Part shown: one piece after another, positions 24,538 through 27,555 of the stretch
Layout: each line of letters opens with the position of its first letter
Position numbering within the stretch: the first letter of the stretch is position 1
Source of the DNA: an uncultured Dehalococcoidia bacterium
GTDB taxonomy: Bacteria; Chloroflexota; Dehalococcoidia; DSTF01; JALHUB01
Length of the DNA: 64,000 nucleotides
Assembly: GCA_964565775.1 (NCBI GenBank)
Contig: CAZMGB010000009.1
Span: forward strand, 65,062-129,061
Reading direction: 5' to 3'
Notes under the pieces: model-generated
Told to the model about the DNA's origin: nothing
The model's database searches: none
The model's input: the letters and a program-made list of their open reading frames with translations, nothing else
Translations under genes and position numbers: made by a program

Positions 24538-27500
24538 TTACGGCCCGTAGTAGACCTTCAGCGGCACCCAGTCCAGGAAGAAGTCGCGGAAGGCGTTGTC
24601 GCTGTTCGACGTCACCCGCAGCCGGAAGTTGGCGTTGCTTAGCTCCGCTGACGACCACGTCCTACCCCAGGTGTCAGTTGAGCCACCCAGGACTGCCGTG
24701 TGCTCGAACATCGTCTCTATATTGTCCGTCTTCGCCGCCGTCCAGGAGGCGCCGCCGTTCCAGGAGAGCTCCACGCTCATGCTGCTGGTGCTGTAAAAGG
24801 TGCTGTCCAGCCACCAGTCGAGCCGCACCTCGATGCCCGAGACGGAGCAGCCTGCCGGGATGGAGACGCCGTAGTTGTAGAAGCGGTGGCGGTCACCGGC
24901 GCCGTCGTAGTTGACGGCGAACCAGGCGCCGTCGGTGAAGGCGTTGGTGGAGTTCTCCTCGAAGCCGTCGCCGTCACCACCAGTGTCGGCGGCGTCGGCC
25001 GTCGGGTTCAGGTAGCCGGTATCACCGGCCGTACAGGTCGCTGTCGCCGTAGGTGTGTGAGTAGGCGTGACGGTAGCCGTAGGTGTGGGTGTGGCAGTGG
25101 GCGTTGCGGTGGCCGCCGAGGTCGGGGTGGGCGTGGCGCCACATTGGATCACGACGTCGTCGAAGTAGACCTCGGTGCTTTCGTCGTTGAAGGTCTTCTT
25201 GTTGTTATAGGCGCCTATGGTGAGGGTGTGTGTACCGGCGGTCAAGAACGGGGTCAGGGTGGCGCTCTGCCAGCCCGTGTCCATCGTGAATCCGCCGTTG
25301 CCGTCGCCGACGAGTTGGGCGAGGTAGTCGTGGCCGCCGGTGCCGTACAGGGTTCCGTCGATGGACAGCAGGGCCTGCCCGTACTCGTCGGACTCATAGT
25401 TGGCCGCGAGGAGCAACCGATAACGCAGGTCCAGCGTGACCGTCTGGTCGTAAGCGAGGACGAACTGTTTCGACCAGCCGCCGGACATCCCCAAGATAGC
25501 GAAATTGTCGATGTCACCAAGCAGGACCTCGAGGCCGCCGCCGGTGAAGCCGCCCGCAGGCTCGTAGGTGCCGCTGGCGTAGGCGGGTGCGCCGGTGCCG
25601 CGGAAGGTGTCGTCGGAGTAGGCGAAGCCCTCGGCGTCGGAGTCGAAGTGGGCATCGAGCGAAGGACAGCCGCCGGGGGTGGGTGTAGAGGTCGGCGTGC
25701 TTGTAGGTGTGTTGGTGGGCGTGGCGGTCCGTGTTGGGGTAGGCGTAGCAGTCGGTGTCGGTGTGAATGTCGGCGTAGCGGTCGGTGTTGCTGTGAACGT
25801 CGGTGTGGGCGTCGACGTCGGCGTGAATGTCGGCGTGGGTGTCGGCGTAGACGTGGGGGTTGAGGTGGACGTGTTGGTAGGAGTGGCGGTGGGCGTCGGG
25901 CTAGGCGTAGATGTAGGCCTTGCAGGCCCGTAGTAGACCTTCAGCGGCACCCAGTCCAGGAAGAAGTCGCGGAAGGCGTTATCGCTGTTCGACGTCACCC
26001 GCAGCCGGAAGTTGGCGTTGCTTAGCTCCGTTGCCGACCACGTCCTGCCCCAGGTGTCAGTTGAACCACCCAGCACTGCCGTGTGCTCGAACGTTGTCGC
26101 TGTACTATCAGTCTTCGCCGCCGTCCAGGAGGCACCGCCGTTCCAGGAGAGCTCTACGCTCATGCTGCTGGTGCTGTAAAAGGTGCTGTCCAGCCACCAG
26201 TCCAGCCGCACCTCGATGCCCGAGACGGAGCAGCCTGCGGGGATGGAGACGCCGTAGTTGTAGAAGCGGTGGCGGTCTCCGGGCCCGTCGTAGTTGGCGG
26301 CGAACCAGGCGGCGTCGGTGAAGGCGTAGGTGGGGTACCACTCGAAGCCGTTGCCGTCGCCGCCGCTGTCAGCGAACTGCGCCGTCGGGTTCAGGTAGCC
26401 GGTATCACCGGCCGTACAGGTCGGCGTCGCTGTCGCTGTGGGCGTGTGCGTAGGCGTGGCGGTGGCCGTAGGGGTAGGAGTGGCGGTAGGCGACGGGCTA
26501 GGCGTAGATGTAGGCGTTGCAGGCCCGTAGTAGACCTTCAGCGGCACCCACTCCAGGAAGAAGTCGCGGAAGCCGCTGTCGCTGTTCGAGGTCACCCGCA
26601 CTCGGAAGTTCGCGTTGCTTAGCTCCGTTGCCGACCACGTCCTGCCCCAGATGTCAGTCGAACCACCCAGCACTGCAGTGTGCTCGAACGTCGTCTCCGT
26701 ATTGTCCGTCTTCGCCGCCGTCCAGGACGTACCACCGTCCCAGGACAGCTCTACGCTCATGCTGCTGCTGCCGAATGTGCTGTCCAGCCACCAGTCCAGC
26801 CGCACCTCGATGCCCGAGACGGAGCAGCCTGCGGGGATGGAGACGCCGTAGTTGTAGAAGCGATGGCGGTCACCGGCGCCGTCGTAGTTGCCAGCGGCGA
26901 AACCGCCGTCGGCGAAGGCGTAGGTCGGGTACCACTCGAAGCCGTTGCCGTCGCCGCCTGTGTCGGCGGCCTGCGCCGTCGGGTTCAGGTAGCCGGTATC
27001 ACCGGGCGTACAGGCCGGCGTGGGAGTGGAGGTAGCCGTTGGAGGCTGCGTCGGGAAGGCGGTTGCCGTCCCGCGCGGGGGCCGCATGTAGATGTTCTCG
27101 GTCCGCGTCTGCGTGACGTCTCCTTCGACGGACGTGATGCTGACGGTGAGGAGATCGCCGCTCTTCGATGCGCTGAATCCGGACGGCGCCAGGTTTCGGG
27201 CCACCGTCTGGCTGGACGGCGTTCCGTCCACCGTCAGAGTACGCACGAGCTCGTCGCCGGACTGCGCGTACGCGCTCTCATAGGTCGTGCCGCTGACGAC
27301 ATCCATCCACCTGAGGGTCACGCTGTCGGGCAGCACAGTAGCCAGCTCCGACACTGCCATCTGCGCATCCCGGTTCAGCCACTCGAAGGCGGTGCCGTAG
27401 TCGTGCGCCACCGCCAGCCTGTCGTGGCCGCGCCCGGTAGCGTTCAGGAACTGAAACGTAGCCGTCGAAAGGAGGCCGAGGATCAGTGTGGCGATGGCCG

Positions 27501-27555
27501 AGGCCACCATGACTTCGACCAGAGTGAAGCCCGCCTCGCCTGCTTTCCCTCTCAT
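24538..27555 (-). CDS. giant (1005 aa) type IV pilin-like protein with class III signal peptide, three tandem ~165-aa domains, Thr/Pro linkers and a central jellyroll-like domain
   Basis: N-terminus [29 protein letters not shown] is a prepilin cleavage/N-methylation site (G|FTLVE). Three repeats ([10 protein letters not shown]...[28 protein letters not shown]...[13 protein letters not shown]...[13 protein letters not shown]) are separated by (T/S)P-rich linkers. Confidence 0.6.
24541..25035 (-). repeat. intragenic tandem repeat unit 3 (~495 bp, ~90% nt identity to the other units)
   Basis: The first ~100 nt (ggcccgtagtagaccttcagcggcacccagtccaggaagaagtcgcggaagg...) recur almost verbatim at about 25924 and 26521. 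Confidence 0.7.
25924..26418 (-). repeat. intragenic tandem repeat unit 2
   Basis: See unit 3. Encodes residues ~380-544 of the pilin-like protein. Confidence 0.7.
26521..27012 (-). repeat. intragenic tandem repeat unit 1
   Basis: See unit 3. Encodes residues ~182-345. Separated from unit 2 by a 34-aa TP linker. Confidence 0.7.

Follow-up and report, generated by a model that had tools for sequence, protein, structure and literature searches.

We analyzed a stretch of 64,000 nucleotides (nt) from an uncultured Dehalococcoidia bacterium (phylum Chloroflexota; assembly GCA_964565775.1, contig CAZMGB010000009.1, positions 65,062 to 129,061 of the forward strand), called the window below, and focused on a gene that encodes a giant protein with a pilin-like N-terminus. 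The gene is one uninterrupted open reading frame (ORF) of 1005 amino acids (aa), and an exact-sequence look-up of the protein returned no record in the collection searched. It lies within a block of type IV pilus (T4P) genes (19738-31668), all on the minus strand, that also encodes PilD, PilB, PilC, PilN, PilM, a PilO-like protein and PilT. The order of genes in the block is major pilin, PilB, PilC, a PilV-like pilin, the giant pilin, a 257-aa protein, PilO, PilM and PilN, PilD, PilT and a TMEM260-like protein (Table 1). The ATG of the giant gene overlaps the stop codon of the PilV-like pilin gene (ATGA).

The N-terminus of the giant protein, MRGKAGEAG-FTLVE, is a class III (prepilin) signal peptide with a short, basic leader ending in Gly at position -1, Phe at +1 and Glu at +5 (Glu5), followed by a hydrophobic helix. 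It matched the N_methyl model PF07963 with 23.5 bits (cut-off 21.2) and TIGR02532 with 18.4 bits (cut-off 16.3). Only three class III signal peptides with Glu5 turned up when the window was scanned with a pattern. The initial annotation had called this a bona fide prepilin N-terminus, and the call is borne out by the Gly at -1 and Glu at +5, by both model scores and by the presence of PilD and a full pilus machinery in the same operon. The protein thus has the features by which a type IV pilin can be tested, a signal peptide and a co-encoded peptidase and machinery. Its pilin module shares 36-71% identity and 23 invariant columns with those of 11 homologues (alignment A3) and 57-78% identity with those of six loci from metagenome-assembled genomes (MAGs). 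Other assignments of the protein did not hold. An NCBIfam HpsC match (18 bits against a cut-off of 200) was confined to the N-terminal helix, and matches of the whole protein to Pfam WW_like and Cadherin_5 stayed below cut-off without an accepted stretch and were ignored. We also considered a non-pilin tip adhesin of the PilY1/PilC type, but there was no Pfam match to a PilY1-type beta-propeller, and the protein carries a prepilin signal.

Table 1. The giant pilin gene and its modules, the surrounding T4P genes, and stand-alone relatives of the repeat domain. Positions are those of the window unless a contig is named.
Feature	Coordinates	Strand	Evidence or remark
Major pilin (EAG-FTLVEVLMVVAILAIL)	31204..31668	-	N_methyl 30.6 bits, TIGR02532 29.4 bits
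PilB assembly ATPase, MshEN-type cyclic di-GMP (c-di-GMP)-binding N-terminus	29225..30982	-	TIGR02538 547.6 bits (cut-off 675.65); NF053729 53 bits (cut-off 38)
PilC/GspF platform protein	28001..29206	-	TIGR02120 (GspF) 339 bits full length, below cut-off 424; PilC models 290-306 bits
Upstream minor pilin, PilV/GspI-like, 148 aa, Glu5 present	27552..27998	-	Sub-threshold NCBIfam XpsI, PilV and GspI, E 1e-4 to 2e-3
Giant gene, predicted modular type IV minor pilin, 1005 aa	24538..27555	-	Single ORF; next gene begins right after the stop codon
Leader peptide, aa 1-9 (MRGKAGEAG), ends in Gly(-1)	27529..27555	-	Read from the sequence; PF07963 above cut-off
Mature pilin module, aa 10-165: hydrophobic alpha1N with Glu5 and ~130-aa head	27061..27528	-	Homologue alignments
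Thr/Pro (TP)-rich linker 1, 16 aa	27013..27060	-	
Repeat R1, aa 182-345, unnamed jelly-roll domain	26521..27012	-	Domain profile 288.8 bits; aa identity 87% to R2, 85% to R3
TP-rich linker 2, 34 aa	26419..26520	-	Imperfect 24-nt tandem periodicity
Repeat R2, aa 380-544, unnamed jelly-roll domain	25924..26418	-	AlphaFold2 model and Foldseek
TP-rich linker 3, 83 aa	25675..25923	-	Imperfect 30-, 18- and 12-nt tandem arrays
Central domain, aa 628-805, second unnamed jelly-roll module	25141..25674	-	29 homologues; model pLDDT (predicted local distance difference test) 95.2
TP-rich linker 4, 35 aa	25036..25140	-	Linker end resembles linker 2
Repeat R3, aa 841-1005, C-terminal	24541..25035	-	Domain profile 281.5 bits; 90% aa identity to R2
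257-aa pilin-like protein without Glu5 (SG-QALPLALIALAIGAVLV)	23764..24537	-	N-terminus conserved
PilO/GspM-like protein	~23093-23731	-	PilO 20.9 bits, just below cut-off; 23093-24109 in the ORF list, start at 23731 estimated from a 214-aa orthologue
PilM	22167-23096	-	PilM_2 26 bits, just below cut-off
PilN	21577-22161	-	PilN 30.1 bits, above cut-off
PilD prepilin peptidase	20820..21566	-	A24_N_bact 114.3 bits, Peptidase_A24 59.4 bits
PilT retraction ATPase	19738..20868	-	TIGR01420 472 bits (cut-off 319)
TMEM260-like/PMT_2 (GT-C) protein O-mannosyltransferase, 668 aa, last in block	17722..19728	-	PF11028 130 bits, PMT_2 27.9 bits
Locus with stand-alone copy, contig L007	7303-8795		After SipW-type peptidase; Dehalococcoidia-type contig
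Locus with stand-alone copy, contig L008	4423-6675		After SipW-type peptidase; Dehalococcoidia-type contig
Locus with stand-alone copy, contig L009	4485-6663		After SipW-type peptidase; Dehalococcoidia-type contig
Locus with stand-alone copy, contig L011	4847-6645		After SipW-type peptidase; Dehalococcoidia-type contig

Behind the pilin module (aa 1-165) the protein carries two repeats (R1 and R2), a central domain of a different kind and a third repeat (R3), all joined by TP-rich linkers that together make up 168 aa. The three repeats of ~165 aa described in the initial annotation were all located, with every motif quoted for them. They are 85-90% identical to each other at the aa level and 88-92% at the nt level, in agreement with the ~90% nt identity given there, whereas its perfectly identical blocks of ~100 nt were somewhat overstated: the longest such block spans 86 nt (R1/R2) and the next ones 56, 49 and 47 nt, compared with at most 15 nt in shuffled sequence. 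An exact match of 43 nt (26423 vs 25040) sets in only a few bases upstream of R2 and R3, and linkers 2 and 4 end in ~12 near-identical residues, which shows that at least the end of the linker was copied together with the domain. The repeats do not stem from an assembly duplication, because they differ at 8-12% of their nt, share no identical block longer than 86 nt and have counterparts in independent assemblies, which hold orthologues with two or three repeats. Moreover, about half of the differing codons are synonymous, non-synonymous differences occur as well, and the reading frame is open throughout. Sites at which one of the three repeats differs from the other two are distributed in patches, with R3-specific sites concentrated in nt 39-91 of the unit and those specific to R1 elsewhere. 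This mosaic is suggestive of gene conversion without proving it, since three sequences are too few to separate conversion from local selection.

The repeat domain had been left without a named family in the initial annotation, and it still has none: it matched no Pfam or NCBIfam model and no PDB sequence at E values of up to 10. It is nevertheless a widespread domain. A word-based search with the repeat gave 302 homologues, and the best 120 of these 302 were nearly all ~210-aa proteins with 58-73% identity. A profile search against 1.84 billion representatives of clusters defined at 50% identity returned 6855 proteins at E ≤ 1e-3, of which 608 reached E ≤ 1e-30. An AlphaFold2 model of R2 built from an alignment of 32 sequences was all-beta with a pLDDT of 96.2. 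Foldseek matched this model to the PDB structures of carbohydrate-binding modules (CBMs) of families CBM32, CBM61, CBM16, CBM22 and CBM4 and of a gingipain adhesin domain, with template modelling (TM) scores of ~0.5, E values of ~4e-4 and 9-15% identity. Membership in a named CBM family was rejected, as there was no sequence-family match and the fold matches reached a TM score of only ~0.5; the model supports the view that the repeat works like a CBM rather than that it is one. In the BFVD database the best match was a viral protein of 1310 aa (A0A5Q2W5G0; TM score 0.82, root-mean-square deviation 2.8 Å, 22% identity), and uncharacterised Caudovirales proteins matched at TM scores of 0.64-0.70, all of them closer than any solved structure. 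Two cysteines of the repeat, C1 and C63, are nearly invariant, and the pair would be compatible with an extracellular disulfide.

Six charged or His residues of the repeat (R49, H50, D73, E111, H112 and D121) are invariant or nearly so, which raises the question of whether the jelly-roll modules are enzymes, similar to polysaccharide lyases or hydrolases, that are delivered by the pilus. Some jelly-roll families are indeed lyases, the fold matches include phage depolymerase-type proteins, and modular pilins with peptidase modules have been catalogued (PMC8179133). However, in the best fold matches it is a non-catalytic CBM part that aligns, for example the CBM32 of AlyQ (7d2a), and the repeat matched no enzyme family. 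The repeat also behaves as an accessory module, with up to 11 matched stretches within one of the proteins from the profile search and with catalytic S8 peptidase and Metallophos domains at its side, as is typical of binding modules. We therefore consider an enzymatic role highly improbable and regard the modules as candidate binding modules.

The domain between R2 and R3 was placed correctly in the initial annotation and is a beta jelly-roll of 178 aa; its concanavalin/LamG-like label was only roughly right. It has no family model of its own and gave no Pfam match, ConA and LamG included, and its search against PDB sequences produced chance-level matches only. We found 29 homologues with 40-58% identity, which often carry the domain C-terminal to Big_2, fn3, cadherin-like/VCBS or Ig domains. 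Foldseek with the all-beta jelly-roll model of the domain returned Bdellovibrio Bd1399, MAM, CBM61/16/4/22/35/6 and phage tailspike and tail-fibre/receptor-binding domains, at TM scores of 0.35-0.52. The top matches mixed CBM, MAM and phage tailspike structures, and no ConA/LamG match dominated. Among solved structures, the fold searches with one repeat and with the central domain have yielded weak matches of the jelly-roll CBM type, extended by MAM in the case of the central domain. A common origin of the two domains was rejected (hhalign probability 0.7%). Both the repeat and the central domain occur mainly in non-pilin multidomain extracellular proteins, next to vWA, S8 peptidase, PKD, Metallophos and other extracellular domains in the case of the repeat and next to Big_2, fn3 and cadherin-like domains in that of the central domain, as expected of portable binding modules. 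The giant protein joins domains that are not specific to pilins to the C-terminal side of a pilin module, which is the property that sets modular pilins apart (Raynaud et al. 2021).

The genes around the giant gene make up a complete machinery of a retractile T4P. The upstream PilV/GspI-like pilin has orthologues with 53-76% identity at the same position. Downstream, the 257-aa protein begins with SG-QALPLALIAL, which is kept as SG-Q(A/F)LPLAL in the orthologues of loci L003, L005 and L006, and continues with a D-x-Y-S-x-D-x-G-I-E-W-x-L-W-R-L-K-N motif. It is conserved with 41-66% identity across all syntenic loci and matches no family model; possibly it is an analogue of GspK/PilX. GspK and PilX lack Glu5. 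The giant gene and its two neighbours are three consecutive minor-pilin-like genes after the platform gene, of which the first is weakly PilV/GspI-like and the last encodes a protein without Glu5, with the giant in the middle (J/W) position. This is like GspI-GspJ-GspK and PilV-PilW-PilX, but unlike in these sets, neither the head of the giant nor the 257-aa protein matches GspJ, PilW, GspK or PilX by sequence. No equivalent of GspH/FimU or PilY1 was identified at the locus, where three minor pilins only were recognised. The same succession of pilus genes is found in six other loci, which come from MAGs of Dehalococcoidia and Chloroflexia and from metagenomes and encode proteins that are 41-81% identical.

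The gene order, the translational coupling and the Glu5-less third member argue, by analogy with GspI/J/K and PilV/W/X, for a place of the giant pilin in a tip or priming complex. A different arrangement is conceivable, in which the main role of the pilin module is to hold the protein in the membrane or to decorate the shaft and the modules are displayed at the surface or along the pilus, or in which the locus encodes a pseudopilus-type system for secretion or display. Linkers 1 and 3, the latter with 83 aa, are long and flexible, so that bulky cargo would be tolerable outside the filament body. In envelopes of the monoderm type there is no secretin to pass, and none was seen among the genes of the pilus cluster. 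The authors of the modular pilin study likewise leave a location in the shaft open (PMC8179133). Against this speak the position of the giant gene between two minor-pilin-like genes and its ATGA coupling to the upstream one, which is the usual arrangement of a priming/tip set, and the presence of PilT and a separate major pilin, which indicate a true retractile pilus. We consider a role away from the tip quite unlikely.

The TMEM260-like gene at the end of the block directly follows pilT also in loci L005, L006, L012, L013 and L014. PMT/TMEM260 enzymes are reported to act on Ser/Thr-rich or specific extracellular domains (PMC10214176, PMC12705809). By analogy, the enzyme may glycosylate the TP linkers or the pilins and is a candidate for this function. 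Just beyond its gene, the window contains long overlapping ORFs on both strands (11684-16231 on the plus strand, 14210-16198 and 16361-17470 on the minus strand), and the two minus-strand ORFs had no Pfam matches. On the other side, ~5 kb from the pilus block, a plus-strand gene (36854-41296) encodes a 1480-aa HAMP-PAS-GAF-GGDEF-HD-GYP protein. A similar GAF/PAS giant is encoded upstream of the major pilin in L012. The nearby GGDEF/HD-GYP protein and the MshEN-type PilB suggest a control of piliation by c-di-GMP.

Comparison of orthologues showed at least 15 proteins that share a conserved pilin module (36-78% identity) and differ in their C-terminal cargo, which comprises zero to three copies of the repeat, DUF7483, PA14/GLEYA and an unnamed domain of ~190 aa. 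Three repeats are present in the window protein, where the central domain stands before the last one, and in P0150 (818 aa), which is encoded at the same operon position; P0151, P0152 and P0153 (630-644 aa) have two. One repeat together with other modules is found in P0154, P0155, P0161, P0169, P0174, P0177 and P0359 (423-860 aa; PA14/GLEYA in P0169), and none in P0231 and P0237 (878 and 552 aa). The window protein is the longest of these orthologues and the only one seen with the central domain. In L003, L005 and L006 the same pilin module and TP linkers carry other cargo, in which the ~190-aa domain is accompanied by DUF7483-type repeats, one to three in number.

Each repeat of the window protein, P0150, P0151 and P0152 has its nearest relative within the same protein (80-93% identity, vs 70-81% between proteins), and the pilin modules differ by about 30%. 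Such a pattern is the mark of duplication within a lineage or of concerted evolution. The exception is P0153, whose two repeats are only 52% identical. The identities of pilin-borne repeats (73-83%) and stand-alone repeats (73-81%) are similar and do not inform on the origin of the former. The recent duplication or concerted evolution proposed in the initial annotation is supported by the within-protein similarity, and the variation in copy number that it anticipated was found when the relatives were compared. Assemblies tend to break or go wrong in genes of this class: the short-read MAG contigs L001, L002 and L004 end 70-240 nt past the pilin module, and L003 (10001-12588) has a frameshift inside a TP linker. 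Such genes are therefore probably under-represented in databases and under-counted in surveys.

The repeat domain also occurs outside pilins, in the context of a second type of filament. Stand-alone copies of ~210 aa that are 73-76% identical to the repeats of the window lie in operons of the TasA-like/SipW type, which places the same module in another context of filaments or matrix. Four of the five long contigs examined have the gene for the ~210-aa homologue directly behind one for an archaeal/SipW-type signal peptidase I (TIGR02228, 71-98 bits, cut-off 51.85). A gene of the Peptidase_M73 (camelysin/TasA) family, above the Pfam cut-off, precedes the peptidase gene in L008 and L011, and the corresponding gene in L009 gave only a weak match of the SipW-signal type. 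The N-terminus of the stand-alone proteins (G-x-A-x-F-T-D...N-T-F-T-T-A) resembles a SipW-dependent signal, and the sole match to a signal model (TIGR04088, in P0001) was below cut-off with 14.7 vs 19 bits. In the fifth contig, L010 (5563-6549), the domain adjoins a weak, sub-threshold ArlF/FlaF-like Ig domain, to which it is fused in P0110 and P0115, and no archaellum cluster was found near the L010 locus. The stand-alone loci resemble the tapA-sipW-tasA arrangement of Bacillus biofilm fibres (PMC9674648, PMC10151520). The likeness to TapA-SipW-TasA of Bacillus subtilis lies in the co-encoded SipW-type peptidase and, in L008 and L011, in the TasA-like Peptidase_M73 gene, whereas the repeat domain is not TasA- or TapA-like by sequence and TasA was absent from the top fold matches of the repeat. 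The giant pilin itself was rejected as a SipW-dependent TasA/TapA-type matrix protein because its signal is a prepilin signal and not of the SipW type.

These contexts bear on the ligand of the giant pilin. The repeat could bind a product of the organism itself, such as TasA-like fibres, S-layer glycans or exopolysaccharide, and the pilus could in that case link sister cells to each other or a cell to its own biofilm matrix, instead of to foreign surfaces. The closest non-pilin relatives of the repeats, with their putative SipW-type signal peptides and their place directly after the peptidase gene, fit such a role, and the sub-threshold ArlF/FlaF-like partners of the domain hint at binding to the envelope. 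However, the neighbourhood of these relatives says nothing direct about a ligand, and the 64-kb window has no TasA/SipW operon, no SipW-type signal motif and no stand-alone or extra copy of the domain. The occurrence of the domain on peptidases, vWA proteins and PKD proteins in several phyla suggests a more general ligand. Binding of the cell's own components, which differs from binding of an external glycan by a tip adhesin in the ligand only, seems to us unlikely.

Modular pilins were defined by Raynaud et al. 2021, who showed that one of them, PilB of Streptococcus sanguinis with its vWA module, is an adhesin (PMC8179133); PilC of this species, with its lectin module, is an adhesin as well (PMC8179133, PMC9934059). 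Their catalogue holds more than 1200 modular pilins in 264 architectures, including an 860-aa protein with 12 copies of a motif, and the authors state that many more would be missed since their modules lack signatures (PMC8179133). For the PilA-PilC lectin complex, Shahin et al. 2023 showed that it binds glycans (PMC9934059). The architecture of the giant pilin is hence not unprecedented, and the protein is best read as a member of the described modular pilin class with new cargo. Like S. sanguinis PilB (pilin and vWA) and PilC (pilin and ConA-like lectin), it begins with a small pilin module that carries a class III signal and is joined by linkers to modules that are not pilus-specific, its gene is part of a T4P operon in a bacterium that lacks an outer-membrane secretin, and the filament is predicted to present the modules for ligand binding; its modules are predicted to share the lectin-type beta-sandwich with PilC. 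Unlike PilB and PilC, it has four modules instead of one and long TP linkers instead of a short loop, its modules are unnamed and match neither vWA nor PF13385, it belongs to Chloroflexota, and its role in adhesion is a prediction. CofB of enterotoxigenic Escherichia coli and TcpB of Vibrio cholerae are likewise minor pilins of large size, in which a pilin domain is followed by a flexible linker and by beta-rich domains at the C-terminus, and have been proposed to sit at the tip and initiate assembly (PMC8179133; for TcpB, see also PMC5207764). These proteins, however, belong to type IVb pili of diderm hosts, are unrelated in sequence and have neither tandem identical modules nor TP linkers. 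The cargo domains resemble CBM32/61/16/22/4/35 and MAM as predicted all-beta sandwiches and portable accessory modules of extracellular proteins, but differ from them in that TM scores are 0.35-0.53, identities 8-20% and sequence-family membership is absent.

Overall, our analysis suggests that the giant protein belongs to a retractile, T4a-like pilus of Dehalococcoidia-type Chloroflexota as a modular type IV minor pilin and acts as a tip adhesin, a reading to which we assign a probability of roughly 60%. What is observed is the signal peptide, the operon context, the domain layout, the predicted folds, the family distributions and the variation in cargo and copy number; the role as tip adhesin is suggested by gene position, size and analogy. 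In the proposed mechanism, the co-encoded PilD would cleave the 9-residue leader after Gly9, and alpha1N with Glu5 and the ~130-aa head would insert into the pilus like any pilin. The likeliest place would be an initiating tip complex with the upstream PilV/GspI-like pilin and the downstream Glu5-less 257-aa protein. The 840-residue C-terminal extension would stay outside the filament and project four beta jelly-roll modules on extended Thr/Pro linkers, which the O-mannosyltransferase encoded at the end of the operon would probably O-glycosylate. The modules would attach to a ligand outside the cell, most likely a glycan, the three near-identical copies lending multivalent avidity, and retraction driven by PilT would pull the cell toward the bound ligand. 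The cargo would evolve fast, by duplication of modules, gene conversion and swapping, while the pilin module and the operon stay fixed.

Several points weigh against this reading. By sequence, the head of the giant pilin has no match among solved minor pilins: a profile built from 12 pilin modules matched, in PDB sequences, only the alpha1N of geopilin, MshA and PilA (E 0.02-0.15). Assignment of the head to the GspJ/PilW class is unsupported, as there was no Pfam, NCBIfam or PDB-profile match past the N-terminal helix and only the position of the gene fits. The 257-aa protein gave no match to PilX_N or GspK, even at E values of up to 10. The weak fold likeness of repeat and central domain to CBMs identifies neither a ligand nor a binding site, and the copy numbers in the metagenome-assembled orthologues could have been lowered by collapse of repeats. 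The flexible first linker would also permit incorporation into the shaft. Processing, incorporation, tip position, glycosylation, adhesion and ligand class are steps that we infer.

A wider idea, which we offer tentatively and hold to be doubtful, is that the ~165-aa jelly-roll is a cargo module that Chloroflexota and their neighbours dedicate to filaments. One ligand-binding unit would then be displayed by fibre systems that are unrelated to each other, on T4P via a pilin module and on TasA-like/SipW fibres via an N-terminal strand, and possibly also on ArlF-like envelope proteins. The pilin locus would then be a fast-evolving cargo cassette that retunes binding at the tip by duplication, conversion and swapping, and its linkers would be glycosylated by the O-mannosyltransferase of the operon.

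To our knowledge, the T4P of Chloroflexota are essentially unstudied. The interest of the locus lies in its two unnamed module families, one of which is very large, in the shuffling of cargo and concerted evolution at a syntenic position and in a module shared with TasA/SipW operons. The two domain families without a database model (6855 clusters for the repeat and 29 homologues found for the central domain) are worth curating, and the series of orthologues with zero to three repeats and alternative cargo is suited to the study of how modular pilins diversify. The conserved O-mannosyltransferase at the end of the operon suggests a testable route of pilin or linker glycosylation. Dehalococcoidia-type lineages are abundant in soils and sediments and rarely cultured, and this locus offers a concrete candidate for the means by which such cells adhere to particles or to one another.

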